DNA of 18,249 nucleotides from Syntrophomonadaceae bacterium (GTDB lineage Bacteria > Bacillota > Syntrophomonadia > Syntrophomonadales > Syntrophomonadaceae), in assembly GCA_035353375.1 (NCBI GenBank), contig DAOPZM010000018.1, forward strand, positions 37,436 through 55,684, read 5' to 3'. The position numbers were made by a program, and so were the translations under genes. This document shows, one piece after another, positions 1-16,444 of the stretch (its first letter is position 1; every line of letters starts with the position of its first letter). The notes beneath the pieces were generated by a model that did no database searches, was not told where the DNA came from, and saw nothing but the letters and a program-made list of their open reading frames with translations.

Positions 1-549
1 ATGCCCTGAACCTGATGGAACTAAGTCATGGAGACAAGGTCGAATTTTACTATGCTGCCGGCATAACAGACCCGACTGATTTGACGGCGGTCAAGGCAGC
101 AGCAGTGGCAGCGGTGAAAACCGTGGCCTCGACCATGGACGTACTGTATGACGGGACAGTTGATTTAACACCGGATGCGACCTTCGACGTGACGGCTTAC
201 AACTCTTCTGCTTCTTATACAGTCGAAGAAACTACCCCGCTGGGAGCACTACAGGCAACCGGCTTGACCTATGGAGTAACAGATAAGAACTATGCAAGCT
301 CAGGAGCTTTGCTATTGGACAATGTAGGAACTTATCTGCGTGATAAAACTAACAGCACCTATTGGTACGCCTACGTTAATGATGTCTATAAAGACGGCTA
401 CAACAATGCTCCGGATGCCCTGAACCTGATGGAACTAAGTCATGGAGACAAGGTCGAATTTTACTATGCAGCTGGCATAACAGACCCGACTGATCTGACG
501 GCGGTCAAGGCAGCGGCGGTGGCAGCAGTGAAAACCGTGGCCTCAACAG
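1..549 (+). repeat. Intragenic direct repeat: 134-nt segment (1-134) repeated at 415-548, period 414 nt (138 codons)
   Basis: Base-by-base comparison of 1-134 with 415-548 gives 8 mismatches (positions 56, 59, 81, 101, 104, 113, 131, 134 of copy 1). All are synonymous; both copies encode the identical 44-aa string ALNLMELSHGDKVEFYYAAGITDPTDLTAVKAAAVAAVKTVAST. Confidence 0.95.
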
Positions 550-3500: not shown

Positions 3501-4127
3501 ATTGCCGTGAACGGTAAAACGGTCAGGCAGACCATTACAGTAAAAACAGAAATACCGGTAACACCGGAAACTCCAGTAAATCCTCCGGCAGAGGAAACAC
3601 CAGTGCTGACCGATATAGATGGCCACTGGGCGGCAGAGTATATAAAGTATCTGGTCGATATTGGAGCTGTTGCCGGGTATCCGGATAACACTTTCAAACC
3701 GGATGAGCTGGTTACCCGCGCCGAATTTGCCAAAATGCTAGTGGAAGCTTTTGGATTGACGGCGGAATCAGGCAAAATATTTGATGATACCGCAGACTAT
3801 TGGGCTAAGGATTATATCGCTGCGGCAGCTGCCCATGGAATCGTAGCCGGTTACAACGATAATGAATTTGGACCGGATGACGTAATCACCCGTGAGCAGA
3901 TTGCAATCATGATAGTTAAAGCTGCCGGGTTGGATGCAGTTGAAGGAGAATTAACTTTCGCCGATGAAGCTGATATATCCTCCTGGGCACATGATTGGGT
4001 TGTAACTGCTGCCCAAAACAAGCTGATGAGCGGTTACACAGATAACACTTTCCGCCCGCAGGATATTGCTACAAGGGCGGAGGCTGTTACAACCATTGTG
4101 AATGCATTAAAATTGTTCAAAGAATAA
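1..4127 (+). CDS. Giant S-layer-anchored multidomain surface protein, 5'-truncated by the window edge
   Basis: The frame is open from base 3 (codons 3-14 = ALNL, continuing a repeat seen again at 415); stop TAA at 4125-4127. By-eye domains: tail of one DUF4430/transcobalamin-like module (1-60) and a complete one (135-470; YWYAYVNDVYKDGY...GDKVEFYYA). Four ~140-155-aa modules carry the sulfite-oxidase/YedY Moco-domain signature (WxLxxxG ... WxGVPLW ... DGY ... NGEPL ... WPLRLVG ... IxxIEL) at 567-1028, 1050-1481, 1512-1931 and 2547-2981. One divergent module (1962-2531) is paralogous to the ORFs at 5616 and 10177. Also a cadherin-like beta-sandwich (2997-3242; LQDLTISQGTLTPAFDPDTYSYT), an Ig-like (Big) domain (3298-3543), and three SLH repeats (3606-4113). 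Confidence 0.9.
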   Translation, partial: ALNLMELSHGDKVEFYYAAGITDPTDLTAVKAAAVAAVKTVASTMDVLYDGTVDLTPDATFDVTAYNSSASYTVEETTPLGALQATGLTYGVTDKNYASSGALLLDNVGTYLRDKTNSTYWYAYVNDVYKDGYNNAPDALNLMELSHGDKVEFYYAAGITDPTDLTAVKAAAVAAVKTVASTGVAPTDWTLQLSGAKNVSVSKANFEAGLACASSGHQVFWTDTKDTDDTSDDDVWGGVPLWLLVAMVDDDPDVGSEHYNFNDDLAAENYEIKVIAGDGWSTILDSAAIARSDGYIIANTLNGEPLPLKTESDKDCWPLQLKGSAISGGQQVGNIARIELSGMPEPSVGWTLEVVGEIGDTITQAEFEEGLACTGSGHYKEWTDIDGNVWSGVPLWLLLGAVDNIETSSHWTFDNTLPASYTVKVVNAEGDYEKTFNGSDVAGSDDYIVADQMNGEPLTDSYPLRLVGDGVTKDDGSLGGLAVGNLARIEIPELQTPEAEAGSWNLTLSGKISDVIAQAEFEAALACPGSGHSAEWTDLDGNVWSGMPLWFLTGWVDDRQPHDYDANQAAAGYKVLVKASDGYSVDFDSSDVKWSNEYIVANKFNGDPLTDSWPLRLVGTGVIGDDGALSGISVGKITEIELTTFGTAADIPELHIVKYAEDGTSVLNEITIDYRDMESNYDVIGDGTTIYRYEGITNNPEDVWDAAETYPGGYKIANAVKGTRIKDLCDQVGGMGAGTEIVLSADDGYETRLPYSSIYTDPSVQERQGDAILAWWGDGDYVPYYADGMRLLFTPGGDHVYGQWDMHETLPSSYWHYYYSDNVQYPSCGGLSSKYITNIEIYSVPAGDWTLELDGTDIGGLEYDVSKTYFESALACQFGANHKATYTDTDSHLWEGMPLWFLAGFVDDVDQHSDESFNDELAESGYNVVITSTDGDSVTINSNDIIRNSGYIVANSLDGAIFPDADSNWPLCLVGSAVSGNNAIAQIKSIELVKPEATLQDLTISQGTLTPAFDPDTYSYTADVASTISSVTISATENDGMTASGDIGTFNLTKGANTFEIDVDGGATHTDATYTIIITRKSTAANGGGGGGVVVTPTVTGVDVKNAPDKVIYDEGDALDLTGLAVTLTYSNGTTKDVVWADFADYDITVAPEDGALLKAADSEIVIAVNGKTVRQTITVKTEIPVTPETPVNPPAEETPVLTDIDGHWAAEYIKYLVDIGAVAGYPDNTFKPDELVTRAEFAKMLVEAFGLTAESGKIFDDTADYWAKDYIAAAAAHGIVAGYNDNEFGPDDVITREQIAIMIVKAAGLDAVEGELTFADEADISSWAHDWVVTAAQNKLMSGYTDNTFRPQDIATRAEAVTTIVNALKLFKE
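567..2981 (+). repeat. Protein-level array of five sulfite-oxidase-fold-like modules inside the giant surface protein (four canonical, one divergent)
   Basis: Recurring WTL(Q/E)xxG ... (G/A)LACxGSGH ... W(G/S/E)G(V/M)PLW(L/F)L ... DG(W/Y/D) ... Y(I)(I/V)AN ... NG(E/D)PL ... WPL(Q/R/C)L(K/V)G ... I(E)(L/I) blocks in the translated ORF. Nucleotide identity between units is low, so these are old duplications. Confidence 0.75.
3606..4113 (+). other. Three tandem S-layer homology (SLH) domains, the cell-wall anchor of the giant protein
   Basis: Motifs LTDIDGHWAAEYIKYLVDIGAVAGYPDNTFKPDELVTRAEFAKMLV, FDDTADYWAKDYIAAAAAHGIVAGYNDNEFGPDDVITREQIAIMIV and FADEADISSWAHDWVVTAAQNKLMSGYTDNTFRPQDIATRAEAVTTIV match the classical SLH consensus (xW..xY(I/V)..a...gi..Gy.dgtF.P...iTRaE.a). 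Confidence 0.9.
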
Positions 4128-4201
4128 ATCTATATTGCTATTCGCTGCCGTCAACATGACTTTAACAGTCCGACAGCAGAAAAACACACCGGCAGCACAT
4201 G

Positions 4202-4231
4202 GGATAAGGGCGATTGACACCGCCCTTATCC
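4202..4231 (+). terminator. Perfect 11-bp stem / 8-nt loop hairpin downstream of the giant gene; possible terminator without a T-tract
   Basis: GGATAAGGGCG (4202-4212) pairs with CGCCCTTATCC (4221-4231); the loop is ATTGACAC. There is no U-run after the stem, so it is not a canonical intrinsic terminator. Confidence 0.35.
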
Positions 4232-4244
4232 TCGCTGATATAAG
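4214..4244 (+). promoter_or_regulatory. Candidate sigma-A-type promoter for the 4276-10049 operon
   Basis: TTGACA at 4214-4219 (inside the hairpin loop) and an extended -10-like TGATATAAG at 4236-4244. The spacer to TATAAG is 19 nt, which is longer than optimal. Confidence 0.3.
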
Positions 4245-4275
4245 GTGACGGGCAAAGTATTTAACGATTATCGTA

Positions 4276-5613
4276 ATGCCAAAGAACAATGGGGTGAACG
4301 AATTGACGCTGAGAAAGCAAACAGGACGGCAGCGTTCCGTACTGATTATGATATTGGTGCTGGCATTAATGACAGCGTCACCCCGGATGGTATTTTGCAG
4401 CGATAATGTTCCCAATCCGCACGGAGTTGACGGCCAATCGATAACTTTGCTTTGGGGACCGTATTTAACCAGTACTGATACCAACAGTACCGTTATTAAT
4501 GTAAAAACTGATATTGATTCAACTGTGATCGTTTATTTCGCTACAGAAGAATATTACGCTGCTTATCATACTTATAATATGAAGGCCTCTGATGGCACCA
4601 AAGGACAATTGCATCACATTGATCTTTCCGGATTGGTGCCAGGAACTGTTTATCTTTATCAGGTGAACTGCAACGGAGAAGCTACCGGAGAATTCAGTTT
4701 CGCCACGTTTCCCGCTGCAGGTAAGTTTACTTTCGCAGTTTACGGTGATACCCAGGATGAACTGCCGAATTTCAGTCAGGCTGAAAGACATAAGCTGGTA
4801 GCCGATCGTATAGCTCAGGAAGAAGAGGTGCTTTTCGTGCTTAATGTCGGAGATCTGGTGAATGACGGCAACGATGCTGCCAATTGGGACCGATATTTTA
4901 ATGCCGCACGAAATATGGCAGCAACCAAAACAGTTTTTCCTGCTCGCGGAAACCATGATGGGAATGATTTATATTACGATATTTTTGGGGTATTACCTTA
5001 TTACTCATTTGATTGTGCCGATGCCCACTTCACAATACTTGACTCGATCGACAATCCCATTGGGCAGACAGACTGGCTGTATAATGATTTGGCCAATGAA
5101 AAGGAATGGAAATTTGTTTTTTCCCACCATCCCATTTATACTTCGGAAACAAATCACTTCGGAGGGTGGGAGAACTTCAGGAATGAGTGGGAGAATATTT
5201 TCATCAGCCAGGGCGTCGATGTGGTTTGGAACGGGCATATCCATGCTTATGAGCGTTACCTGGAAAACAATATTATGTATATGGTAGTCGGTATCGGCGG
5301 CGGGCCTTACAGTACGCTCAGTACTGACAAGTACCCTGGATATCGCAACAGCCTGGAACGCAGCCTTGGTTATGCCAAAGTTACGATCGATCCTGATGCG
5401 GGTACTGCACTGGTACAAGTTGTTCGGGTCGCAGATATATCCATGGACGGCAAAATAATCACAGAACTCCCCGAGGGAACAATATTTGAAACTTATACTG
5501 TAACCTCTTCTGCAGCAGAAGACTTGAAAATAACTCCCATAGGCAGTACAGTGCTGCAGTCACTTTTTCAGTTTTTTAATAGCATCTACTATTTACTACT
5601 AAAAGGGGTGTAA
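4276..5613 (+). CDS. Secreted purple-acid-phosphatase-like metallophosphoesterase (calcineurin-like fold) with an N-terminal Fn3-like domain
   Basis: Metallophosphoesterase motifs occur in order: FAVYGDTQD, NVGDLVNDG, ARGNHD, FSHHPIY, NGHIHAYERY (compare plant PAP GHVHAYER). The N-terminal ITLLWGPYL...GTVYLYQV resembles the PAP N-terminal domain. A basic then hydrophobic N-terminus (RKQTGRQRSVLIMILVLALMTASP) suggests a signal peptide. The start is uncertain: ATG 4276 has no RBS, whereas in-frame TTG 4303 follows GGGGTGA (4291-4297). Confidence 0.85.
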   Translation: MPKNNGVNELTLRKQTGRQRSVLIMILVLALMTASPRMVFCSDNVPNPHGVDGQSITLLWGPYLTSTDTNSTVINVKTDIDSTVIVYFATEEYYAAYHTYNMKASDGTKGQLHHIDLSGLVPGTVYLYQVNCNGEATGEFSFATFPAAGKFTFAVYGDTQDELPNFSQAERHKLVADRIAQEEEVLFVLNVGDLVNDGNDAANWDRYFNAARNMAATKTVFPARGNHDGNDLYYDIFGVLPYYSFDCADAHFTILDSIDNPIGQTDWLYNDLANEKEWKFVFSHHPIYTSETNHFGGWENFRNEWENIFISQGVDVVWNGHIHAYERYLENNIMYMVVGIGGGPYSTLSTDKYPGYRNSLERSLGYAKVTIDPDAGTALVQVVRVADISMDGKIITELPEGTIFETYTVTSSAAEDLKITPIGSTVLQSLFQFFNSIYYLLLKGV

Positions 5614-5615
5614 TT

Positions 5616-6482
5616 ATGTCGAAAGGGATAATCTCGCGGTTTTGTTGCTTAGCGGTTTCAGTCGTATTTTCGCTGCTCATAACCCAGTTTTTTATGGTTT
5701 CTCCGGCATGGGGTGCGGGGGCTACGACTTCGGTGCATCTGATCAAATATGCAGCTGATGGTGTGACCGTATCAGACGAGAAAATCGTTGATTACAAATG
5801 GATGGAAAAAAACCTTAAGGTTTATGGGGACGGGAAGACTCATTATTATCACCAGGGGCCTGTATTCGAAGGAGATTTATGGGATCCGGACGAAGTCAAT
5901 AATCTTAAAGACAAAGGAGCGGTGAAGGGTACTGCAATCAAAGATTTGTGTGACCTGATCGGCGGGATGGAAACCGGCGATGAAGTGATGCTGGTATCAG
6001 TAGACAAATGGCATACGGAGTTTGCTTACAGCAATGTCTACGAACCTCTGGATATTCAAGGAGTAATTGCTCTTTGCTGGTACAATGGTGAGGATATTGC
6101 CGAGGGAGAGCGATTTGGGGTGGGATACCCGGCCAATAATGCTTATCGTACGGGACTGCAGATAGTCTTTATGCCGGAATCTGCGAACAGTGAAGGGAAA
6201 TATGTTTTCGGCAACAATGACATGAAAATAGCCTTGCCCCAGGAAAAGTACCAGCATTTTTTTGAAGGGCAATACCCGAGTACCAGCGGCCTTTCCGGCA
6301 AGTGGGTCAGTGAACTGAGAATTTACAGCGGCGGTGTTCCGGAAAACCTGATCATTGAATTAAACGACCAGCCTCCTTTAACCGAGTCTGAAAAGACTAT
6401 ACCCTGGATACCCATTATAGCAGGAGCAGTGGGGATAGTATTAGTCGGCGGGTATATTTATTTGAGGAGAAAACCAGAATGA
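5616..6482 (+). CDS. Extracytoplasmic, C-terminally membrane-anchored protein with one divergent sulfite-oxidase-fold-like module (paralogue of 1962-2531 and 10177-11358)
   Basis: RBS AAAGGGG lies upstream of ATG 5616. Signal peptide ...FFMVSPAWGAGA. Shared motifs with paralogues: H(L/I)(I/V)KYAxDG, GDGxTHYYHQGPVF, KGTxIKDLCxxxGGM, PSxSGLSxK. C-terminal TM plus basic tail: IPIIAGAVGIVLVGGYIYLRRKPE. Confidence 0.85.
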   Translation: MSKGIISRFCCLAVSVVFSLLITQFFMVSPAWGAGATTSVHLIKYAADGVTVSDEKIVDYKWMEKNLKVYGDGKTHYYHQGPVFEGDLWDPDEVNNLKDKGAVKGTAIKDLCDLIGGMETGDEVMLVSVDKWHTEFAYSNVYEPLDIQGVIALCWYNGEDIAEGERFGVGYPANNAYRTGLQIVFMPESANSEGKYVFGNNDMKIALPQEKYQHFFEGQYPSTSGLSGKWVSELRIYSGGVPENLIIELNDQPPLTESEKTIPWIPIIAGAVGIVLVGGYIYLRRKPE

Positions 6483-7060
6483 AAGATAAAATGGCCAAGG
6501 CCTTATTAATAATTGGAGTTTTGTTCATCCTGGGATCAGTACTTGTATACCTGCAGCCCTGGCAGGGGCAGGTTGATGCGGAAACCAGAAATTGGCAGTT
6601 GACTTTAGTCGGCCGTGACGGTGATGAAAAGGTGCTATCCTATAAGGATATTACCGGGCTGCCGGCTTACCAGGGCAAAGGAGGCTTTTTCTCTACGATT
6701 GGGATTGTTTATGGGCCCTATGATGCCAAAGGGGTTACCTTGGAAGAATTGTGTGAACAAGTTGGCGGGATAGTTCAGGGTGATGCAGTAATGATAACAG
6801 CCAAGGATGGTTATTCAACAGTTCTGGATTATGAGCAGGTCATGGGAGAATTTATTACTTACAATTCTGAGCTTAAGGAAGTGCCTCACCCAGAACTTAA
6901 GACCATACTGATGTATAAGCAGGACGGCAAACCATTGGCTGATGAAGACGGCAAACCGTTTAGAATTGCGGTGGTGAGCAAAGACCAGGGACTTCTGAAT
7001 GAGGGTACCTATTGGGTCAAATGGGTCAATAAAATAGAAGTGCTTAATAAAACTCCCTGA
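6479..7060 (+). CDS. Small N-terminally anchored protein with a molybdopterin-binding-oxidoreductase-like (sulfite-oxidase-fold) domain
   Basis: ATGA start/stop overlap with the upstream gene; GAGGAG RBS at 6464-6469. N-terminal TM ALLIIGVLFILGSVLVYL, then WQLTLVGRDG...LSYKDI...KGVTLEELCEQVGG...AKDGYS...DGKPL...PFRIAV...YWVKWVNKIEV, the typical layout of Oxidored_molyb-type domains. Confidence 0.85.
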   Translation: MKDKMAKALLIIGVLFILGSVLVYLQPWQGQVDAETRNWQLTLVGRDGDEKVLSYKDITGLPAYQGKGGFFSTIGIVYGPYDAKGVTLEELCEQVGGIVQGDAVMITAKDGYSTVLDYEQVMGEFITYNSELKEVPHPELKTILMYKQDGKPLADEDGKPFRIAVVSKDQGLLNEGTYWVKWVNKIEVLNKTP

Positions 7061-7081
7061 AAAGAGTAAAATCGTTAAAAG

Positions 7082-8170
7082 GTGGTCGGATTATTGTCTG
7101 CAAGAAAATGGGTGTATGCTTTTTTATTAGTGGCAATTATATTGACGGCGACAGGGTGCTCCCGAACGGATACCCGTCAGGATAACGGCAAAGTTGAGTT
7201 GAAGGTAATAATTGCCGGCAGTCTTATGGTGCCCTTTCAAGCCATTGAAAAGGAATTTGAGAGAGACAATCCGGATATAGATGTGTTGCTGGAAGGGCAT
7301 GGAAGTGTGCAGGCAATACGCTGTGTAACTGAATTGGGAGATATAGCAGACCTGACTGCTGTAGCTGATACCCAGCTTATTCCAGCGATGATGTATTCTA
7401 CCCGGATCCCCGGAAGCGATACTCCTTATGCTGATTGGCTGGTTAAGTTTTCTGCTAACCGGCTGGGGATTGCCTATAAGGATGAAAGCGCTTATTCATC
7501 CGAAATCAATGCTGATAACTGGTACGAAATAATTTCCCGGCCGGATGTATCCATCGGTCTGGCGGACCCCCGCATCGATGCTATGGGGTACCGCACCTTG
7601 ATGACGATGCAGCTGGCTGAGGATTATTACAGTGATAATACTATATTCGAAAGGACAATAGGAGATGCGTTCAATCCGCCCTTGGTTGTTTCTGAACAGG
7701 GGGGGGATTTTAACATAATTGTTCCCGAGATTGTAAAATCAAATCAATCCAGGGTTAAGCTGCGCAGTTACAGCATACAATTGATGGCGCTCCTGGAGTC
7801 AGGTGATTTAGATTATTCGTTCGAGTATGAAAGTGTAGCCAAACAACGGGGGCTCAAGTTTTTAAGCCTGCCTGAAGCGATCGACCTCAGCAGTCCGGAT
7901 TACAATAAGCAATACCGGCAGGTGGAAGTAAACCTCGACTTTAAAAGATTTGCATCTGTCATACCCAGTTTTAAAGGAACCCAAATCGTATATGGATTAA
8001 CTATACCTGAAAATGCTCAACATCCAGGCGAGGCGGAACGGTTAATAGAGTATGTTCTCAGTCCGGACGGCCGGCGCATATTCGAACAGTGCCACCAGCC
8101 GTTGTTAGCGACTCCGGTATGTGACAATGTCCAGGCCTTGCCTGAGTCTCTTCAGCCATTATTCCGTTAG
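7082..8170 (+). CDS. wtpA: Tungstate/molybdate ABC transporter substrate-binding lipoprotein, WtpA family
   Basis: Lipobox LTATGC follows a hydrophobic N-terminus. Strong by-eye similarity to archaeal WtpA proteins as I recall them: AGSLxxPF, GSVxxIRxVTELG, NWYEIxxRPDV, GYRTLMxxQLAExYY, ESGDLDYxFxYxSVAKQxG, IDLSSPDY, IVYGLTIPxNA. The start may be TTG 7094, which is 8 nt after AAGGTGG at 7079-7085, rather than GTG 7082. Confidence 0.8.
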   Translation: MVGLLSARKWVYAFLLVAIILTATGCSRTDTRQDNGKVELKVIIAGSLMVPFQAIEKEFERDNPDIDVLLEGHGSVQAIRCVTELGDIADLTAVADTQLIPAMMYSTRIPGSDTPYADWLVKFSANRLGIAYKDESAYSSEINADNWYEIISRPDVSIGLADPRIDAMGYRTLMTMQLAEDYYSDNTIFERTIGDAFNPPLVVSEQGGDFNIIVPEIVKSNQSRVKLRSYSIQLMALLESGDLDYSFEYESVAKQRGLKFLSLPEAIDLSSPDYNKQYRQVEVNLDFKRFASVIPSFKGTQIVYGLTIPENAQHPGEAERLIEYVLSPDGRRIFEQCHQPLLATPVCDNVQALPESLQPLFR

Positions 8171-8179
8171 GAGATACAA

Positions 8180-9004
8180 ATGGAAGATAACGGGCAGATT
8201 AAAAACAATTGGTTGAGTAAAATTTTTAAGCATAGTTTTACTTTTTTATTTATCATACTTGGGTTTCTGATACTGCTGTTTATATTGGTGCCCTTGTTTA
8301 AGATGGTTTTTCTCTCAGATAAGGAAGCTATGTGGTTAGCCCTTCTCGACAGTGAAACCATACAGGCGGTCTGGCTTTCCATATATGCGGCCCTGATCGC
8401 TACTGCGATTGGCTTTGTTCTGGGAGTTCCCCTTGCTTATCTTTTCGCCCGCTATGAGTTTCCCGGCAAAAACATTTTTGAAGGTTTAATAGATCTGCCA
8501 ATCGTGGTGCCTCATTCTGCAGCAGGCATAGCCTTGCTTTTTGTCTTCGGCAGTAATTTTATAGTTGGGAAAGGATTTAAGCTGTTTGGTATCCAATTCG
8601 TTGATTCCCTGGCCGGGATCATCATCGCTATGCTGTTTGTAAGTGTGCCTATCTTAATTAGTTCAGCGAAGGAAAGTTTCAGAAAGGTGGATGTACGCCT
8701 GGAAAAGGTCGCGCGTACATTGGGAGCTTCTCCCTGGCAGACTTTTTTCAGGATCTCCTTCCCTTTGGCCTGGCGCAGCATACTGGCGGGGAGCTTGATG
8801 ATGTGGGCCAGAGGTATGAGCGAATTCGGTGCGGTAATTATTCTTACTTACCACCCGACAACCGCTCCGGTCCTTATCTATGAACGGTTTGAGACTTTTG
8901 GGTTGGCGCAGGCAATTCCAGTGGCGGCTATTATGATAATCATCAGTGCTGTTGTTTTTATTGGGGTTCAAACTCTTTTACGCTGGAGGAAAAACTATGA
9001 TTAG
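8180..9004 (+). CDS. wtpB: Tungstate/molybdate ABC transporter permease (ModB/WtpB-like)
   Basis: AGGAG RBS at 8169-8173. Multi-TM protein with the ABC-permease EAA-type loop ARTLGASPWQTFFRISFPLAWRSILAGSLMMWARGMSEFGAV. Located between the SBP and ATPase genes. Confidence 0.8.
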   Translation: MEDNGQIKNNWLSKIFKHSFTFLFIILGFLILLFILVPLFKMVFLSDKEAMWLALLDSETIQAVWLSIYAALIATAIGFVLGVPLAYLFARYEFPGKNIFEGLIDLPIVVPHSAAGIALLFVFGSNFIVGKGFKLFGIQFVDSLAGIIIAMLFVSVPILISSAKESFRKVDVRLEKVARTLGASPWQTFFRISFPLAWRSILAGSLMMWARGMSEFGAVIILTYHPTTAPVLIYERFETFGLAQAIPVAAIMIIISAVVFIGVQTLLRWRKNYD

Positions 9005-10049
9005 CTTAGCTGGAGTAAACTTGCAGTTACATGGATTTGCCCTTCAGGATATCAACCTAAAAATAGACAACGGCGATTATTTCATATTGGTTGGTCCTTC
9101 AGCTTCGGGTAAAACGTTGCTATTGGAAACCATAGCTGGTTTGCACAATGTCACCTCCGGCAAAATCTGGATCGATGGCAGAGATATAACCTCATTGGAG
9201 TCGGAAAAAAGGAATATCGGCATGGTGTATCAGGATTGTGCCCTGTTTCCACACCTGACAGTCAGGGATAACATTGTTTTCGGTTTGGTTATCAGGGGGA
9301 AGAAACCCGCTGTGATTAACCGTGAACTCAAACGGATAGTGCAGCTTCTTAACATTGGGTATCTGCTTGACAGAAGACCCCATAATCTCAGCGGCGGCGA
9401 AAAACAGAAGGTGGCTTTGGCCCGGGCCCTGGTTACTAATCCGGAACTGCTGCTTCTGGATGAACCTCTGGGCGCTCTTGATCCGCAGACACGAGAGACT
9501 GTAAGGCAGGAGATCAATAAACTCCATCAGGAATTGGGTATTACCATTTTGCATGTTACCCACGATTTTGAAGAGGCGGTTACTTTAGGGACACGAATAG
9601 CAGTGATCGGGGAAGGCTCAATAAAGCAGGCCGGTCTGCCGGATGAAATTTTCCATCATCCTAATTCCAGGTTTGTAGCTTATTTCACGATGGCAGTAAA
9701 TGTATTCCCCGGAGCGGCCGAAAGGGAGAACGACAACAAAACGTTTTTTATAGTTGAAAATACCAGATTTGAAACTGAAGAAAGTATTACCGGGGCTTGT
9801 TATGCGGCCATCCGCCCTGAAAATATATTGCTCTCAAACACCTTCCCGGTAAACAATGGCCAGGGCTTTTTCACGGGGGTGATAACCGGGATTATTAACA
9901 GGGGCTCAATTATAAACATAATAGTCGATCTGCCCCCAACGTTGGTTTGCCTGCTTACCCGCAATGCATTCGAGCAAATGAATCTAACGGTGGGTCAGCA
10001 GGTGTACCTGACAGTGCCGCCATCATCAGTTTATTTATTTACAGATTAG
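8997..10049 (+). CDS. wtpC: Tungstate/molybdate ABC transporter ATP-binding protein with a C-terminal TOBE-like domain (ModC/WtpC-like)
   Basis: Walker A GPSASGKT, Q-loop, signature LSGGEKQKVALARAL, Walker B LLLLDEP and H-loop HVTHD. The C-terminal ~100 aa are TOBE-like (IRPENILL ... GVITGIINRGSIINIIVDL ... GQQVYLTVPPSSVYLF). I prefer ATG 8997 (GGAGGA at 8984-8989, 8-nt overlap with the wtpB stop) over the track start 8946, which lies inside wtpB and adds a non-homologous 17-aa leader. Confidence 0.85.
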   Translation: MISLAGVNLQLHGFALQDINLKIDNGDYFILVGPSASGKTLLLETIAGLHNVTSGKIWIDGRDITSLESEKRNIGMVYQDCALFPHLTVRDNIVFGLVIRGKKPAVINRELKRIVQLLNIGYLLDRRPHNLSGGEKQKVALARALVTNPELLLLDEPLGALDPQTRETVRQEINKLHQELGITILHVTHDFEEAVTLGTRIAVIGEGSIKQAGLPDEIFHHPNSRFVAYFTMAVNVFPGAAERENDNKTFFIVENTRFETEESITGACYAAIRPENILLSNTFPVNNGQGFFTGVITGIINRGSIINIIVDLPPTLVCLLTRNAFEQMNLTVGQQVYLTVPPSSVYLFTD

Positions 10050-10176
10050 CATTTACAGCTATAAAATCAGCTTTATTAAGAGCGCCAAATTCGAAGAACG
10101 AAAACAAGACAGCGGAAGTTTATTTTAATCGAATTTATAATTACATAAGAATCGGCTGAGGAAAGGGGGAGAAAAA

Positions 10177-11358
10177 TTGCTGAAGCACATACTGAACAGT
10201 TTATGGCTGACAAGAGTGAAGGCAATGGCCGTGATTTTATTTGTGACAGTGATAGTGATTTTACCGCAATCAACGGAAGCTGCTCCCACTACCAGCTTAA
10301 CCATAAAAAAAATGGCTGTTGACGGAAAAACAGTTCTGGCGAAAAAAACAATTGATTACCATTGGATGATGGATCCCAATAACATTCCGGTGATGGGGGA
10401 TGGTATGACCCATTACTATCATCAGGGCCCCGTCTTTGTTGATGATCCTGATCCGGATACAGAAGAAGCGCTGCGCTGGAATCCTGCGGAAGATACTAAT
10501 GTACGGGAGAAGGACATGGGAGCCCTGATGGGAACGAATGTCAAGGACCTGTGTAATCTGGTCGGCGGCATGGCTGAGCACGATACGCTGAGAATAAAAG
10601 CTCAGGACGGGTTGAGTAAACAATTTGCCTATAAGAATATATATCAATACTCAAGTCGGGAAGGACCTATGGTAATATCTTGGTACAAGGACGGTCAATA
10701 TCCTGACAGCGGATTTTCTGATGGCATGCGTCTGGTTTGGCTTGCAGACACCTCGACCAATCCGTGGGGTATCCACGTTTTTGGCAATTGGGACTGGTGC
10801 CAGGCGGCAGAAGAAAATTATTGGTACTATTATCAAAGCGGCGATGAAAAGTATCCTACAACTACCGGGCTTTCAGTGATGTTCGTCAATGAGCTGATAA
10901 TAAACAGTACTGAGCCTGTGCCTGAGGGGCCGATAGTTCCGGCGGCCGGGTTCAAGGCCGATAAGACATCAGGCTATGAACCACTGACTGTGAATTTTAC
11001 AGACCAGTCGGCAAACTCTCCGACTTCATGTGCATGGGACTTTGACAATGACGGCAGGATTGACAGTACAGACAAGAGCCCGTCCTATACCTTTGAAAGC
11101 GCAGGCCAGTACAGTGTAAAATTGACCGTGAACAATTATGCCGGCAGCGATTCTGAGGTTAAGCTGGATTACATAATAGTCGATCCTGCAAAATCCAATG
11201 AAGTTGCCAATGAAAAGCCTGCTCCATTGGAGCAGGAGAAACCTTCGCCTGATACGAATAAAAAACAATTTGACTATGCAAAAAAGGTGTTCATTCCGGC
11301 TATGGTGATTATTGCTCTTGGCCTGGGAATAATCCTGCTTAGAAAGAAGGACAGGTAA
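10177..11358 (+). CDS. Extracytoplasmic membrane-anchored protein: divergent sulfite-oxidase-fold-like module + PKD domain + C-terminal TM anchor
   Basis: TTG start at 10177 preceded by GAAAGGGGGAG. Signal peptide ...ILPQSTEAAP. Paralogue motifs: GDGMTHYYHQGPVF, GTNVKDLCNLVGGM, YPTTTGLS. PKD domain at ~10948-11185 (PLTVNFTDQS...WDFDNDG...SPSYTFESAGQYSVKLTVNN). C-terminal TM plus basic tail: IPAMVIIALGLGIILLRKKDR. Confidence 0.85.
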   Translation: MLKHILNSLWLTRVKAMAVILFVTVIVILPQSTEAAPTTSLTIKKMAVDGKTVLAKKTIDYHWMMDPNNIPVMGDGMTHYYHQGPVFVDDPDPDTEEALRWNPAEDTNVREKDMGALMGTNVKDLCNLVGGMAEHDTLRIKAQDGLSKQFAYKNIYQYSSREGPMVISWYKDGQYPDSGFSDGMRLVWLADTSTNPWGIHVFGNWDWCQAAEENYWYYYQSGDEKYPTTTGLSVMFVNELIINSTEPVPEGPIVPAAGFKADKTSGYEPLTVNFTDQSANSPTSCAWDFDNDGRIDSTDKSPSYTFESAGQYSVKLTVNNYAGSDSEVKLDYIIVDPAKSNEVANEKPAPLEQEKPSPDTNKKQFDYAKKVFIPAMVIIALGLGIILLRKKDR

Positions 11359-11514
11359 TATAAATTGATATTAGCAGGGATATATTGAGACATAAATGCA
11401 AATTCAATTTGACAACAGGCAGCAAATATTATTTGTTTACCAACTCTGTTTAAGAGAAAAGGGTTCGTACAAGTGGTGATTAATAAAATGTAATCACGGC
11501 TGCCGGTTTTTATC

Positions 11515-11549
11515 AATCCGAACGTACCTTATATAAAGGAGTTCGGATT
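11515..11549 (+). terminator. Stem-loop in the intergenic region downstream of the PKD gene; possible terminator or RNA structure
   Basis: AATCCGAAC (11515-11523) pairs with GTTCGGATT (11541-11549). An inner CCTT/AAGG pairing (11527-11530 / 11536-11539) extends it. A TTTTTT run occurs only at 11562-11567, so it is not canonical. Confidence 0.3.
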
Positions 11550-11655
11550 ATTTGTCGGAGGTTTTTTCAAAACCGTGATACTTTTTTATGGCTTAGAAAA
11601 TGTTCAAACATTTCACCATTATTCGAAGTGGATTATGGTCATCCAAAAAAAACGG

Positions 11656-11699
11656 TTACATTTTGAATGAAATGTAAAAGCTGTTATTTCAGTTATAAT
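11656..11699 (+). promoter_or_regulatory. Perfect 8-bp inverted repeat plus consensus -10 box upstream of the RyR gene
   Basis: TTACATTT (11656-11663), 6-nt spacer TGAATG, AAATGTAA (11670-11677). TATAAT at 11694-11699. There is no good -35 hexamer; the right arm of the repeat sits where -35 would be. ATG at 11755 is preceded by AAGGAG. Confidence 0.35.
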
Positions 11700-11754
11700 A
11701 GTATCAAAGAAACAATGAATCAAGTAATCAATCAATATTTAAGGAGAATACCAT

Positions 11755-12039
11755 ATGGCTTATAAACCTGAACCGATCAACACTTCCAGTATTCAATTGA
11801 ATGACGGCATAAAGGAACTTACAGAACTATTGGCTGAAAATGCCCATGATATCTGGGCTCTGCAGCGCATGAGTGATGGATGGGTTTACGGGAGAAAACG
11901 CAATGATGAAAAAAAGGAACATCCCTGTTTGATTGCTTATGAGCAGTTACCCGAAGCGGAGAAAGAGTATGATCGTAAAATAGCAATGGAAACAATAAAG
12001 GTTATTATTGCCCTGGGATATCGAATCGAAAAAGCATAA
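11755..12039 (+). CDS. Stand-alone RyR (ryanodine-receptor repeat) domain protein, 94 aa
   Basis: Strong AAGGAG RBS. Near full-length match to the RyR repeat consensus as known from animal RyR channels: P-x-P-(I/V)-(N/D)-TS-x-I-x-L ... LAEN-x-H-x-x-W ... GW-x-YG ... R-x-D-x-x-K-x-HPCL ... LPE-x-E-x-x-YD ... ETIK-x-x-x-ALGY. Confidence 0.9.
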   Translation: MAYKPEPINTSSIQLNDGIKELTELLAENAHDIWALQRMSDGWVYGRKRNDEKKEHPCLIAYEQLPEAEKEYDRKIAMETIKVIIALGYRIEKA

Positions 12040-12096
12040 CCCGGGATATATTTAATGAAGAATATTTGATATTTTGCTTTTTGGGGGGAGAGGCAA

Positions 12097-15000
12097 ATGG
12101 ACAATATTGTAAAATGGCATTCCCAGGGCATATTCATCTCCAGTACTTTTCGGGATATGCATGCCGAAAGAGGGTATCTGCAGGACATCGTATTTCCCGA
12201 GCTGGAGAAGAGACTGAGAGAAAGCGCTTATCCATATCATATCGAACCCATCGATCTGCGCTGGGGAGTAGAGACTGCCGGGCTTAATGAACAGCAGCAA
12301 AAAGAAACAGAAGTATTGAAAGTATGCCTGAACGAAATCGAGCGCAGCCGCCCCTTTATGATCGTCCTGCTGGGTGACCGCTATGGCTGGGTACCACCGG
12401 CAGTCAATATCAAAAGAGCCATAGAAGGCACCGGCTATTCCTGTGATATAAACGGGCGAAGCGTTACCGCCCTGGAAATAGAATACGGCATCCTGAACTC
12501 ACTGGCTGAATATAAACGCTGCTTCTTCTACTTCCGCAACCCCCTGCCTTATGAAAACATGCCAGCGAATACAGCCGCCAGATACAGTGACCGGTACAAT
12601 CCTGATGAGCAAGCCAGCTATCCCAAACTGCAGGCATTAAAACAGCGCATCAAAGAAACCGGCCATGGACCGGTCAGAGAATATTGGGCGGACTGGAACC
12701 AGAGCGATCAGGAAGTCAGCGGGCTGGAAGCATTCGGAGATCTGGTAACTGAAGACCTGTGGCAGGCTATACAGGAAGAATGCCGGAGAACGATAGAAGA
12801 ACAGCCCCGGACCTGGCAGGAAGAAGAACAATGGCTGCTGGAACAATACATAGAAAACCGGTATCCATACTATCACAGCGCCAGCCTCATTCAGCAGCAG
12901 ATGGCAGCCAGCATCCGTCAGCAAGCAGTTCAGAGCCTAAAAGACTTCCTTTTATCCCCGCCGGGATCAGGTACAGCCAGAGGAATATGTCTGGCAGGAG
13001 AACCCGGGGCCGGCAAAAGCACCTTGTTTGCCCGTCTCTGCCGGGAAATGCAGCAGGAAGATGTATTGATACTGGCCCATGCCGGAGGCATCGGCAGCCG
13101 GGCCGGAAACAGCCAGACCATGCTGCGCCTGTGGATACAAGCCATGAATAAATTTCTCGGTCTAAAGGATACCTCAGACTCACTTGATACCCGCAAAGAA
13201 ACAGAAGATACCTTCGCCGAACTGTTGTCCCGCTCTGCAGTCAAAAAACGGGTCATAGTAATGATAGATGCCTTGAATGAATTTCAGGACAGCCAGGCTA
13301 AGTACCTCACCTGGCTGCCGGAGATATGGCCAAATAATGCCCGCTTGCTGATCACCACCATTACCGGCGCCGAACCGAAAGTGCGCAACCTGGAAATCAA
13401 GTACCTGGCAGCGTTGACAAAAAACGAAGCAACAGCCGTTTGCCAGGTAATATGCAGCCGTTATCACAAAACCCTGAATTCCCAGGTCGAAAAAATCATA
13501 TTATCCCATAAGCATAATGATCAGCCCTCATACGGCAATCCCTTGTGGATCCAGTTAGCCATCAATGAGATACTCACCCTGGACGAAGATGATTATGCCC
13601 GCCTGGAAAAAGATGAACTTCAGGGAACCGCCGAAGCAAGACTGCTGTCCATGCTGCTCGATACAGCGCAAAAACTGCCCCCGGATGTTCCCGGACTGTA
13701 CCAGTCCCTGACCGAAAAACTGGAGAACCTTTTTGGAGCGTCCCAGGTAAAAAGCCTATTAAGCCTGATTGCCGTCAGCCGCATGGGACTACGCGAAAGC
13801 GATCTTAAACAGCTGGTACCCGTAATGACCGGGGAGGCTTGGCAGGACCTGACCTTTGCCCGGATAAGAAACTATCTGGGAAGTCATCTGGTGCAGAGAG
13901 GGACAGAAAACCTGTGGAACTTCTTCCACCAGCAAGCCAAAATATCAGTCATGAACCGTTATCTGAAAAACGAAGCCGACTTAAAAAACCTCCATGCCGT
14001 AATCGCCGCTTATCTGGAAACCCTCACCCGGCAAGATCCCTTAAGGATCAACGAAATCATGTACCACTATATCCATGCGGATGACAAGCTAAAAGCTGCC
14101 AAATATTACGGTGCATACGATTTAAATGACCAGGAAATCCAGGGTGCTGCTCAGGCTCTGGCCAGCCATATCATCAATAACAGCCACGATGAAGCTCTGG
14201 AGTGGGTCTGCAGCCTGCTGCAAAGTCCGTTATCAGCGGATGAAATATGTATAATAGCAAATCACAATAACGCTTATTTGCTCACATATCTTGAGCACTT
14301 CGTAAGCCTTGCTGATCAGACTGTTTTACTTAATACGGCTAAGACTGCCCTTATTAAGATTGTTGATGAGCATTCCGATAATTTAATCTATAGGCGAAAT
14401 CTTTCTGTTAGCTACGACCGGCTGGGCAGAGCAGAAGCTACCCGGGGCAACTGGGCAGGAGCCCGGCAGTATTACCAGAACAGCCTGGAAATCAGAAAAG
14501 AACTGGCCAAGCTTTACCCGGACAATGCAGAATATAGGCGGGAACTATTCGTAAGCTACGATAGGCTGGGTGAAGTGGAAGAGACCCGGGGCAACTGGGA
14601 AGGAGCCATGCAGTATTACCAGGATAGCTTGAAAATTATTAAAGAATTGGTCAGGCTTTATCCGGATAATACCCAATACAAGCGGGATCTATACATAAGC
14701 TGCCAGAAGATGGGCGGAGTGGCAGAACCCCGGGGTAACTGGGAAGGAGCCCGGCAGTATTATCAGGACAGCCTGGAGATGATAAAAGAACTGGTCAATC
14801 TTTTCCCGGATAGTACTCAATACAATCAGGATTTGTCCATAGGGTACAACAGGTTGGCCAATGTGGAAGAAACCCGGGGCAACTGGGAAATAGCCCGGGT
14901 ATATTATGGGGACAGTCTGGAAATTACAAAAGAACTAGTCAGGTTTTTCCCGGAAAATGCTCGGTTCAAGTGGGATTTGTCCATAAATTATATCAATCTG

Positions 15001-16167
15001 GGTAATGTTGAAGCTACCCGGGGCAACTGGGAGAGAGCCCAGCAGTATTACCAGGACAGCCTGAAGATTAAAAAGGAATTAGTAAGTCTTTTCCCTGAAA
15101 ACGTTCAGTACAAGCGAGATCTATCTGTAGGCTATAACAAACTGGCCAATGTGGAGGAGAACCGGAACAAATGGGAAAAAGTCCGGTTATATTTCCAGAA
15201 CATCCTGGAGATTACGGAAGAATTAATAAGCCTATCCCCTGAAAATGTCCAGTACAAGCAGGATCTATCTGTAGGCTATAACAAACTGGCCAATGTGGAA
15301 GAGATCCGCGGTAATTGGGATAGAGCCCGGCAGTATTATGAAGAAAGCCTGAAAATTGTAAAAGAATTAGTAAGGATTTCCCCGGAAAATGCCCGGTACA
15401 AGCGGGATTTGTTCGTAAGCTATATCAGGCTGGGCGGAGTAGAAGAGAACCGGTGTAACTGGGAAGGAGCCAGGCAGTATTATGAGGAAAGCCTGGAGAT
15501 GGTAAAAGAACAGGTCAGGATTTCCCCGGAATTCACCCAGTACAAGCGGGATCTGTTCGTAAGCTATATCAGGCTGGGGGGAGTGGAAGAGAACCGGGGC
15601 AACTGGGAAGGAGCCCGGCAGTATTACCAGGACAGCCTGGAGATTACAGAAGAATTAGTCAACCTTTCTCCAGAAACTGCCCAGTTTAAGTTGGATTTGT
15701 CAACGACCCAAGTTAGACTGGGCAATGTGGAAGAGAGGCAGGGCAACTGGGAAAAAGCCCGCGTTTACTACCAGGAGAGCCTGCAGATCACAAAAGAATT
15801 AATCAGCATTTCCCCGGAAACTACCCAGTTAAAGCGGGATTTGTTTGTAAGCTATATCAGACTGGGCGGAGTAGAAGAGAATCGGTGTAACTGGGAAGGA
15901 GCCCGGCAGTATTTCAAGGACAGCCTGGAGACTATAAAAGAATTAGTTAGCCTTTTCCCGGAAAGCGCCCAGTTAAAGCGGGATCTGTTTGTAAGCTATA
16001 TCAGACTGGGTGGGGTGGAAAAGAGGCAAGGCAACTTGGAGATGACCCGGCAGTATTATCATGACAGCCTGGAGATTGTAAAAGAATTAGTTAGCCTTTT
16101 CCCAGAAAGCTCGCAGTATAGAGGAGATTTGTCTATAATCTGCGATAAGATGAAAGAAGTGGAATAG
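12097..16167 (+). CDS. DUF4062 (TIR-like fold) - STAND P-loop NTPase (NACHT/NB-ARC-like) - 12x 48-aa TPR-like repeat protein, 1356 aa
   Basis: GGGGGGAGAGG RBS at 12083-12093, 57 nt after the RyR stop. N-terminus IFISSTFRDMHAERGYL...DLRWGV...CLNEIERSRPFMIVLLGDRYGWVPP is the DUF4062 signature. Walker A GEPGAGKST (aa 301-309), Walker B VIVMIDALNEF (aa 386-396), sensor-1-like ARLLITTIT. Helical linker, then tandem TPR-like repeats from aa 765 to the C-terminus. Confidence 0.92.
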   Translation: MDNIVKWHSQGIFISSTFRDMHAERGYLQDIVFPELEKRLRESAYPYHIEPIDLRWGVETAGLNEQQQKETEVLKVCLNEIERSRPFMIVLLGDRYGWVPPAVNIKRAIEGTGYSCDINGRSVTALEIEYGILNSLAEYKRCFFYFRNPLPYENMPANTAARYSDRYNPDEQASYPKLQALKQRIKETGHGPVREYWADWNQSDQEVSGLEAFGDLVTEDLWQAIQEECRRTIEEQPRTWQEEEQWLLEQYIENRYPYYHSASLIQQQMAASIRQQAVQSLKDFLLSPPGSGTARGICLAGEPGAGKSTLFARLCREMQQEDVLILAHAGGIGSRAGNSQTMLRLWIQAMNKFLGLKDTSDSLDTRKETEDTFAELLSRSAVKKRVIVMIDALNEFQDSQAKYLTWLPEIWPNNARLLITTITGAEPKVRNLEIKYLAALTKNEATAVCQVICSRYHKTLNSQVEKIILSHKHNDQPSYGNPLWIQLAINEILTLDEDDYARLEKDELQGTAEARLLSMLLDTAQKLPPDVPGLYQSLTEKLENLFGASQVKSLLSLIAVSRMGLRESDLKQLVPVMTGEAWQDLTFARIRNYLGSHLVQRGTENLWNFFHQQAKISVMNRYLKNEADLKNLHAVIAAYLETLTRQDPLRINEIMYHYIHADDKLKAAKYYGAYDLNDQEIQGAAQALASHIINNSHDEALEWVCSLLQSPLSADEICIIANHNNAYLLTYLEHFVSLADQTVLLNTAKTALIKIVDEHSDNLIYRRNLSVSYDRLGRAEATRGNWAGARQYYQNSLEIRKELAKLYPDNAEYRRELFVSYDRLGEVEETRGNWEGAMQYYQDSLKIIKELVRLYPDNTQYKRDLYISCQKMGGVAEPRGNWEGARQYYQDSLEMIKELVNLFPDSTQYNQDLSIGYNRLANVEETRGNWEIARVYYGDSLEITKELVRFFPENARFKWDLSINYINLGNVEATRGNWERAQQYYQDSLKIKKELVSLFPENVQYKRDLSVGYNKLANVEENRNKWEKVRLYFQNILEITEELISLSPENVQYKQDLSVGYNKLANVEEIRGNWDRARQYYEESLKIVKELVRISPENARYKRDLFVSYIRLGGVEENRCNWEGARQYYEESLEMVKEQVRISPEFTQYKRDLFVSYIRLGGVEENRGNWEGARQYYQDSLEITEELVNLSPETAQFKLDLSTTQVRLGNVEERQGNWEKARVYYQESLQITKELISISPETTQLKRDLFVSYIRLGGVEENRCNWEGARQYFKDSLETIKELVSLFPESAQLKRDLFVSYIRLGGVEKRQGNLEMTRQYYHDSLEIVKELVSLFPESSQYRGDLSIICDKMKEVE
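12127..12399 (+). other. DUF4062 domain (N-(deoxy)ribosyltransferase/TIR-like fold), putative effector module
   Basis: aa 11-101. Conserved FISSTF-x-D-x-x-x-ER at the start (candidate catalytic Glu24) and hhhLG-x-RYGW at the end. Confidence 0.75.
12985..13365 (+). other. STAND NTPase core (Walker A to sensor-1-like strand)
   Basis: ICLAGEPGAGKSTLFARL (Lys307) ... KRVIVMIDALNEF (Asp391) ... NARLLITTIT. Confidence 0.85.
14389..16164 (+). repeat. Tandem coding repeat: 12 complete 144-nt (48-aa) TPR-like units plus a 16-codon partial unit
   Basis: Unit boundaries were checked at 14389, 14533 and 16117 (each starts with TAT = Tyr). Consensus: Y(K/R)RDL(S/F)V(S/G)Y(x)(R/K)L(G/A)xVEExRGNWEGARQYYQDSLEIxKELVxLxPExxQ. 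Adjacent units 6/7, 8/9 and 11/12 share long, nearly identical nucleotide stretches. Confidence 0.95.
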
Positions 16168-16343
16168 CACCGGGAGTAACTGGCTATAATAAAAATTCAA
16201 AACTCGCAAAGATGGTTTATATGCTTAAGATTTGCCTGAAAACCCTGAAAAGTATAAAGAAAAAAAATAAAGCACGGACAAGATTATTTAAACCCGGGAA
16301 TTTCTTTAGCGATGTTATCTGCAGGATGTGGTACTTCAATCAA

Positions 16344-16403
16344 CTGATACCATTAATTTAATGGTTTCTGATACTTATTATCATGTCAGTCCTGCCATAT
16401 AAT
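16344..16403 (+). promoter_or_regulatory. Candidate pdxST promoter with an upstream palindrome flanked by direct repeats
   Basis: 17-nt palindrome ACCATTAA-T-TTAATGGT (16349-16365), bracketed by CTGATAC at 16344-16350 and 16368-16374. -35-like TTATTA (16375-16380), 17-nt spacer, TATAAT (16398-16403). Confidence 0.4.
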
Positions 16404-16444
16404 TAAACACATAATTTTACTATTCAAAACAAGGAGTGTTTAAA

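Follow-up and report, generated by a model that had tools for sequence, protein, structure and literature searches.

A small ryanodine receptor-repeat gene beside a DUF4062-STAND-TPR gene in a Syntrophomonadaceae genome: a candidate NAD-centred immune operon and a wider linkage of such genes to TIR-type genes

Bacterial immune proteins of the Avs (AVAST) and bNACHT groups combine an effector at the N terminus, a STAND NTPase whose Walker A and B motifs are intact and a TPR-like sensor at the C terminus, and in characterised Avs proteins the TPR sensor binds an invader protein, leading to oligomerisation. Two 2026 preprints have described the DUF4062 domain as a NADase in phage defence: it is a TIR-like enzyme whose products are ADP-ribose (ADPR) and nicotinamide, and the bacterial DUF4062 protein Swarozyc (KpSwz) acts in phage defence by abortive infection. 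On the phage side, the RyR/R12-domain protein RyDEP binds or cleaves the cyclic ADP-ribose (cADPR) messengers 2'cADPR and 3'cADPR. Here we describe a stretch of 18,249 nt (the window) from a Syntrophomonadaceae metagenome-assembled genome (MAG) of anaerobic digester origin, in which two adjacent open reading frames (ORFs), ORF A and ORF B (Table 1), encode a single ryanodine receptor (RyR) repeat and a protein with DUF4062, STAND NTPase and TPR regions, respectively. What 2026 preprints report separately, namely that DUF4062 is a defence NADase and that phage RyR proteins bind or destroy TIR-made cADPR, is joined at this locus on the host side. We consider the chief interest of the locus to be the general RyR-TIR linkage uncovered through it, in which stand-alone RyR genes habitually share operons with TIR or DUF4062 genes across many phyla.

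ORF B shares the tripartite layout of the Avs and bNACHT proteins. A Pfam search matched all three parts that an earlier note, made from the letters of this DNA alone, had read in the protein: DUF4062 (PF13271) matches residues 12-128 (E 4.7e-12, 46.4 bits against a cut-off of 24.7 bits), the NTPase region at ~274-430 matches NPHP3_N (7e-9), AAA_16, AAA_22 and NACHT, and TPR_10 (3e-53) and TPR_12 (3e-47) match an array running from residue ~770 to the end of the protein. The TIR-like fold assigned to the DUF4062 part was borne out by phmmer, which aligned residues 7-227 to the TIR-like domain of human TEP1 (PDB 11gz_A, E 6.6e-26). The NADase activity of TEP1 requires E1008, with contributions from R908 and R976 (2026 preprint), and using a chain-to-protein offset of 893, which is consistent with all three published arginine positions, these residues correspond in the alignment to E127, R19 and R95 of ORF B. 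Both E127 and R95 are invariant in 19-24 homologues, and E127 lies in the motif S-V-T-A-L-E-I-E-Y, the 'E-Y region' of the Evangelion preprint. The predicted catalytic glutamate of the ORF B DUF4062 domain is E127. The residue that the earlier note had singled out, E24, is also conserved, but it is not the equivalent of TEP1 E1008 and was rejected as the catalytic glutamate. K307, proposed as the Walker A residue, held up: Walker A (G304-x-G306-K307-S308, that is GxGKS at 304-308) and a Walker B-type D391 are invariant in the ORF B family, and together with the domain order they uphold the proposed Avs/NACHT-like arrangement.

Comparison with the described DUF4062 proteins shows both kinship and difference. 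A DUF4062 core with the catalytic Glu in S-x-T-x-x-E and two active-site Arg is common to ORF B, Swarozyc, Evangelion (Eva01), TEP1, NPHP3 and NWD1-2, and human NPHP3 has the same DUF4062-NACHT-TPR order; Pfam TPR_NPHP3 is also matched by ORF B homologues. Swarozyc and Evangelion, however, are single-gene systems that combine DUF4062 with a helical AUX region without an NTPase, whereas ORF B has a NACHT-type NTPase and a TPR array, and the described bacterial TEP1-like proteins have a TROVE-NACHT-WD40 order unlike that of ORF B. By sequence, ORF B falls outside the named Avs families and the PADLOC NLR-like models, and its effector, DUF4062, is neither a nuclease nor a canonical TIR nor any other known effector. 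No described Avs or bNACHT system includes a co-transcribed RyR protein. The ORF B family is large and spread over many phyla (744 clusters at E <= 1e-10 among 8000 candidates tested), and the closest homologue among the matches listed is only 45 % identical, in a word-indexed search that missed an identical ORF B (L168 10343-14413, on several contigs), so that absence from these matches is not absence from the collection.

ORF A is, as had been proposed, essentially one RyR repeat: its residues 3-93 cover model positions 1-91 of 91 of PF02026 (E 1.2e-35; 122 bits against a cut-off of 27.4 bits). It matches the Bacteroides thetaiotaomicron 'putative ryanodine receptor' structures 3NRT/6UAG (also 4N05) with an E of 3e-31 and is ~48 % identical, by eye, to repeat 1 of animal RyR2, and it is nearer to the animal repeats and the B. 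thetaiotaomicron protein than to cultured-phage proteins, whose homologues reach at most ~50 % identity and only over partial length. No informative family for ORF A or ORF B was found in NCBIfam. ORF A belongs to a large and strikingly conserved clade of stand-alone proteins of ~94 aa that are 61-81 % identical across phyla (Planctomycetota, Acidobacteriota, Bacillota, Verrucomicrobiota, Bacteroidota and others). In the RyDEP pocket, H75 and D117 form a catalytic dyad, W78 stacks on the adenine and H100 touches the phosphates. We recovered a RyDEP orthologue, gp81 of Mycobacterium phage Aegeus, whose Adps/Namat (NARP1) context is that of the published protein and which has H75, W78, H100 and D117 at exactly the published positions, and H31, W34, H56 and D73 of ORF A align with these four residues. 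Across 28 family members (cellular clade) H31, W34 and D73 are invariant and H56 nearly so. ORF A and RyDEP thus have the Pfam family, the single-repeat size class and the four ligand residues in common, and ORF A carries a predicted ADPR-type pocket. Binding of adenine nucleotides by RyR R12 domains is also reported (PMC12627627). RyDEP stands in a phage NARP1 counter-defence operon, whereas ORF A is cellular and stands in an operon with a predicted NAD-cleaving enzyme.

The two genes are arranged as the earlier note had it, co-oriented and each with a ribosome-binding site, which can be read directly in the letters (AGGAG 8 nt ahead of the ORF A start and GGAG ~6 nt ahead of that of ORF B). 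The absence of a hairpin between them was likewise confirmed, since a promoter/terminator scan found no terminator-like site on the + strand between ORF A and ORF B and the intergenic spacer folds no better than shuffled sequence (z = 0.04).

We scanned from the RyR side with one genome per species, which gave at least 550 relatives of ORF A; the best 80 loci were analysed, and their flanking genes were grouped by cross-locus clustering of ORFs and then with Pfam. A DUF4062 gene is nearby in just eight of the 80 loci. The recurrent flanking family is made up of TIR_2 proteins, often carrying TPR or WD40 arrays (30 of 45 members), and of DUF4062-STAND proteins. Altogether 43 of the 80 loci have a TIR or DUF4062 ORF in their flanks; on the same strand such an ORF lies within 1.5 kb in 31/80 and within 400 nt in 22/80. 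The density of TIR/DUF4062 genes is 0.32 per kb at 0-0.5 kb from the RyR gene compared to 0.009 per kb at 5-8 kb, a ~34-fold concentration (binomial p 3e-15). Small RyR genes therefore associate with TIR-type NAD-processing genes generally, and this association is better supported than a fixed RyR-STAND pair. Examples of such operons are cyclase-TPR-S / RyR / TIR-beta-helix (L037 and L044), Card1-endonuclease protein / RyR / TIR / DUF4062-STAND (L073), TrkA_N-RyR / DUF4062-STAND-TPR / RyR (L010), RyR / NUDIX-RelA_SpoT-TPR-S / DUF4062-STAND (L048) and TIR-TPR / RyR / DUF4231 / TIR (L180). The 37 cellular loci without TIR or DUF4062 have as recurrent partners larger RyR-containing proteins, TrkA_N (a NAD-binding fold) and TPR-S, and further nucleotide cyclases, a Card1-type endonuclease, MoxR and Abi_2.

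The last of these operons deserves a description of its own. In L180 (GCA_048222695.1, 4423-13140) a TIR-DUF7779-TPR gene is followed by a small RyR gene 72 % identical to ORF A, a DUF4231 (SLATT-type) gene of 597 aa and a TIR gene of 392 aa, and then by a DUF7779-TPR gene in convergent orientation. The operon has the appearance of a type VII-like Thoeris system (TIR plus SLATT effector) with an inserted RyR gene, and it is to type VII Thoeris that TIR / RyR / DUF4231 / TIR operons with ORF A relatives bear a resemblance. In L164 (5264-7501) only a RyR gene (81 %) and a DUF4231 gene are present.

Two further features of the RyR family bear on how it might be coupled to its neighbours. In ~180 loci we found no RyR fused to TIR or DUF4062 in one polypeptide; RyR is fused instead to RelA_SpoT-SLOG, TrkA_N and AAA modules, which look like receivers or effectors, and loci often have both a small RyR and a larger RyR-fusion protein (L010, L067 and L047). 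The DUF4062-partnered RyRs are scattered in the RyR tree and form no clade. Because the conserved RyR swaps partners freely and its DUF4062-partnered members are scattered in this way, a small-molecule link would be simpler than a co-evolving protein interface.

RyR genes also occur on viral contigs, where their surroundings differ. Sixteen contigs (L181-L196, IMG/VR) carry small RyR genes 50-65 % identical to ORF A, of which one has a TIR neighbour and the others are solo (Fisher p 6e-4 versus the cellular loci). They probably serve counter-defence in the manner of RyDEP while being close relatives of the cellular clade, and the kinship hints at gene exchange between host systems and phages.

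Viewed from the STAND side, the RyR-STAND synteny is real yet facultative. The sample comprised 80 metagenomic DUF4062-STAND homologue loci, 30-46 % identical, plus L001 (81 in all), and a RyR-domain gene is present in seven of them (L001, L089, L095, L100, L118, L128 and L157), each time as the immediate neighbour. Only L157 has a small stand-alone RyR directly upstream of the STAND gene as in the window; its STAND protein shares only 31 % identity with ORF B, along with the DUF4062/NPHP3_N architecture. At the remaining six, a large protein carries RyR at its C terminus: RelA_SpoT-(TPR)-SLOG-RyR in L001, L095 and L100, AAA-RyR in L089, TrkA_N-RyR in L128 and a two-RyR protein in L118. In a Pfam census of 96 ORFs flanking the STAND genes, RyR (6) and TIR_2 (6) were the joint top specific domains, followed by TrkA_N, extra copies of DUF4062 and AAA_16 (4 each). 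The pair is thus no conserved two-gene cassette: an adjacent RyR does recur, even beside the distant STAND gene of L157, but the layout itself is copied nowhere else in the sample. Most DUF4062-STAND homologues are solitary, like the characterised DUF4062 defence proteins.

Two other kinds of locus came to light. At least two DUF4062 paralogues stand in tandem in L097, L102, L114, L120, L142, L150 and L163, some of them with TIR genes, and these loci recall the arrays of NLR-like genes that have been described in bacteria of complex life style. The RelA_SpoT-(TPR)-SLOG (LSDAT_prok)-RyR proteins, of 830-950 aa, are encoded directly beside DUF4062-STAND genes (L001 9214-12054; L067 1259-3883; L095 2014-4509, - strand; L100 2265-4832, - strand) and appear to be undescribed candidate effectors of the alarmone-synthetase type with two nucleotide-sensor domains.

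A parallel to the RyR loci is provided by Thoeris, in which producer and receiver are likewise on separate polypeptides and the chemistry is NAD-derived. In Thoeris-type systems SLOG is the known sensor of cADPR isomers. Since the RyR loci have the same split between producer and receiver, RyR most plausibly reads, buffers or destroys the NAD-derived nucleotide of the TIR-type enzyme. The window differs from Thoeris in having no canonical TIR (ThsB) and no effector gene, its DUF4062 being fused to its own STAND sensor. RyR does not appear as a Thoeris component in the main text or the four searched supplementary text files of the Thoeris paper, and no RyR partner of Swarozyc, Evangelion or TEP1-like DUF4062 proteins is reported in the literature searched. 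The same literature holds no report that links RyR to STAND, TIR, DUF4062, SLOG or SLATT in prokaryotes, although a comparative-genomics mention outside it is possible, and the earlier note's statement that no RyR-STAND system is known agrees with this. What is new is therefore a cellular RyR beside a DUF4062-STAND gene and the general RyR-TIR linkage; the NLR-like logic, the DUF4062 NADase and the RyDEP pocket were known.

With about even confidence, we read ORF A and ORF B as a two-gene, NAD-centred immune or abortive-infection operon, in which an NLR-like NADase sensor is joined by a swappable accessory of the ADPR family that acts as a buffer or off-switch. The TPR array of ORF B would bind a trigger, by analogy with Avs an invader protein, and the NACHT-type NTPase would then oligomerise as expected for the STAND family. 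Oligomerisation would gather the N-terminal DUF4062 domains and so allow cleavage of NAD+; the residues for this are present, and TEP1 and KpSwz suggest the activity and its product, ADP-ribose. ORF A probably homodimerises, as do the B. thetaiotaomicron protein and phage RyDEP, and its conserved residues suggest that it may bind, and possibly hydrolyse, an ADP-ribose-type nucleotide coming from ORF B. It would thereby be a regulator at the level of the small molecule, a buffer or off-switch by which the threshold for activation is set. A small-molecule regulator is the most likely role because ORF A is effector-less, RyR swaps partners and RyR is never fused to the NADase, and a dampening, threshold-setting form of it is favoured by the lack of an effector domain together with the frequent coexistence of small RyRs with larger RyR fusions. 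Extended to the whole clade, cellular small RyRs might be host regulators (off-switches or threshold-setters) of TIR-family signalling that act by binding or cleaving the cADPR-type products made by TIR and DUF4062 enzymes, an extension that we offer as tentative and rather doubtful. The ring nucleases of type III CRISPR provide an analogy for small RyRs as built-in off-switches.

Several observations weigh against the immune-operon reading. The DUF4062-STAND homologues lack a RyR neighbour in 74 of 80 loci, from which ORF B would probably act on its own, with ORF A either dispensable or modulatory. Neither a further defence gene nor a separate candidate effector is present in the window, and we know of no experiment on any cellular small RyR protein. 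In PADLOC-DB v2 the pair matched just a generic TPR model, a kinase TPR region and, weakly, mad8; it belongs to no Avs, NLR-like or other named system there, as the earlier note had expected. The two characterised DUF4062 enzymes yield only linear ADP-ribose and no cyclic signal, which makes the target of an ORF A acting as sponge or glycosidase hard to name, and non-catalytic, sponge-type phage homologues (Ruegeria, Pectobacterium) keep the same four RyDEP residues, so the sequence does not distinguish hydrolysis by ORF A from binding alone. Finally, the window RyR groups with copies (81, 74 and 72 % identical) paired with DUF4231 or TIR genes, and given these nearest relatives the pairing in the window could be a recent, possibly non-functional juxtaposition. 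This last point, like the many STAND homologues without RyR and a 95 % identical RyR gene in another chromosomal context, would also fit an adjacency without functional meaning, with ORF A a relic or hitch-hiker of a Thoeris-like TIR / RyR / DUF4231 module and ORF B an autonomous single-gene NADase. We regard such a chance pairing as distinctly unlikely, since the two genes are co-oriented and separated by 57 nt that hold no terminator, a diverged sister strain keeps both of them intact, all seven RyR genes in STAND loci are immediate neighbours, RyR shares first place among the neighbour domains of the STAND family and the order of small RyR followed by STAND recurs in L157 despite the distance of its STAND protein.

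The main alternative to a buffer or off-switch is a positive role, in which ORF A is a minimal signal receptor or co-factor that, once bound to the product, activates ORF B in a feed-forward manner or an effector elsewhere. RyR is indeed the C-terminal module of presumed effectors beside DUF4062-STAND genes, where it presumably acts in cis, small RyR genes adjoin genes for DUF4231/SLATT-type membrane proteins in L164 and L180, and no RyR is fused to the producer enzyme. However, ORF A has no effector domain, the 18-kb window offers no candidate effector, and the joint presence of a small RyR and a larger RyR fusion in L010, L067 and L047 suits a modulator better than a second receptor, and we consider this role unlikely. 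That the pair has no immune function, with ORF B as a housekeeping or regulatory STAND protein of the NPHP3/TEP1 kind tying NAD(P)+ turnover to an internal cue and ORF A as a sensor of ADPR or NAD metabolites, seems improbable. The flanks are of a housekeeping nature with no defence island, the eukaryotic DUF4062-NACHT proteins (NPHP3, TEP1, NWD1/2) serve non-immune functions, and no NADase activity was seen in vitro with purified NPHP3, NWD1 and NWD2; against this, the distribution is patchy and the genomic context differs in close relatives, homologous loci have tandem DUF4062-STAND paralogues and TIR genes, and the bacterial DUF4062 proteins tested so far are defence NADases. Most improbable of all is a RyDEP-like anti-defence role, in which ORF A, carried by a mobile element or prophage remnant, neutralises TIR-type signalling. 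Its family and ligand residues are those of phage RyDEP and solo copies exist on 16 viral contigs, but phage and mobile-element genes are absent from the window, the great majority of the clade is cellular (at least 550 genome matches versus 16 viral), the cellular copies are co-oriented with and adjacent to TIR-type genes, and the cultured-phage homologues are distant and partial. Apart from these alternatives, the activity of ORF A may deprive phage NARP1 of its ADPR substrate.

Should RyR prove functional here, bacterial NAD-derived signalling would have in it a new receiver or regulator domain and the first candidate for a host-encoded brake, with a hint to the origin of phage RyDEP and a simple bacterial model for nucleotide regulation of a ryanodine-receptor repeat domain. 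If the more tentative extension to all cellular small RyRs were true, some DUF4062-STAND proteins would make a signalling nucleotide besides depleting NAD+, phage RyDEP counter-defence genes would have been captured from host small RyR genes, and the cADPR- or adenine-nucleotide-sensitive repeats of animal ryanodine receptors would descend from a bacterial immune-signalling module.

Table 1. Features of the RyR and DUF4062-STAND-TPR gene pair and its spacers (window coordinates)
Feature	Position	Strand	Size	Remarks
Upstream spacer, AT-rich	11359..11754	+	396 nt	presumed promoter region of the ORF A/ORF B pair
ORF A	11755..12039	+	94 aa	ATG start; stand-alone single RyR repeat (PF02026), predicted ADPR-family nucleotide binder
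ORF A-ORF B intergenic spacer	12040..12096	+	57 nt	holds ORF B ribosome-binding site; terminator-free
ORF B	12097..16167	+	1356 aa	ATG start; DUF4062 + NACHT-type STAND NTPase + TPR array
Predicted DUF4062 TIR-like NADase domain	12097..12801	+	ORF B residues 1-235	predicted catalytic E127; R19, R95
NACHT/NPHP3_N-type STAND NTPase and helical/winged-helix arm	12802..14376	+	ORF B residues ~236-760	Pfam, Walker motifs
Putative TPR sensor array	14377..16167	+	ORF B residues ~761-1356	~twelve 48-aa units; TPR_10/TPR_12
Downstream spacer, AT-rich, before pdxS	16168..16435	+	268 nt	without recognisable intrinsic terminator

At the DNA level, the TPR array has a 144-nt period (11.7 copies, 74 % matches), over which Tandem Repeats Finder places a 432-nt super-period at 14421-16108 (3.9 copies, score 1500 compared to 1196 for the 144-nt unit), and the array has probably grown by duplication of three-repeat blocks. 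The identical locus is found on at least five other contigs, and the pair shows no variation among five metagenome contigs (100 % identity). A sister strain (L197), 97-99 % identical, has both genes intact in the layout of the window, with 97 % identity in the 396-nt upstream region and 98 % in the 57-nt spacer. It has just 14 amino-acid changes, and because these are evenly distributed over ORF B nothing points to diversifying selection in the TPR array.

The spacers on both sides of the pair, given earlier as ~400 and ~270 nt and AT-rich, have a GC content of ~0.36-0.37 compared to 0.44-0.52 elsewhere in the window. The upstream spacer contains, by eye, a TATAAT hexamer at 11694-11699 with a poor -35, a consensus scan found no promoter on the + strand around the pair, and no Rfam family matched this spacer. 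The downstream spacer folds no better than its shuffles (z = 1.14). The neighbours are also those named earlier, an oxyanion-type ABC importer / molybdopterin-oxidoreductase / S-layer cluster on one flank and pdxS on the other, with pdxT next in L168. We found no phage genes, mobile-element genes or tRNA in the window, and scans with Rfam, for tRNA genes and for flanking repeats revealed neither a riboswitch nor an integration site or insertion scar at the locus. What speaks for an accessory insertion is the AT-rich spacers and the differing context in relatives.

One such relative is another Syntrophomonadaceae MAG (L176, GCA_028699165.1), in which the 95 % identical RyR gene (7001-7285) has an amino-acid ABC transporter upstream. 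This context suggests that the RyR module is mobile within Syntrophomonadaceae. The contig ends 56 nt past the gene, perhaps by an assembly break at a repeat array. Upstream of the pair in the window, positions 15-11358 hold a cluster of secreted or S-layer proteins with molybdopterin-oxidoreductase domains. It includes a 1370-aa SLH + cadherin-like + Oxidored_molyb protein, a 193-aa Oxidored_molyb protein, a purple-acid-phosphatase-like metallophosphatase, a PKD protein and a TOBE-type ABC importer, and may be an extracellular molybdo- or tungsto-enzyme locus.

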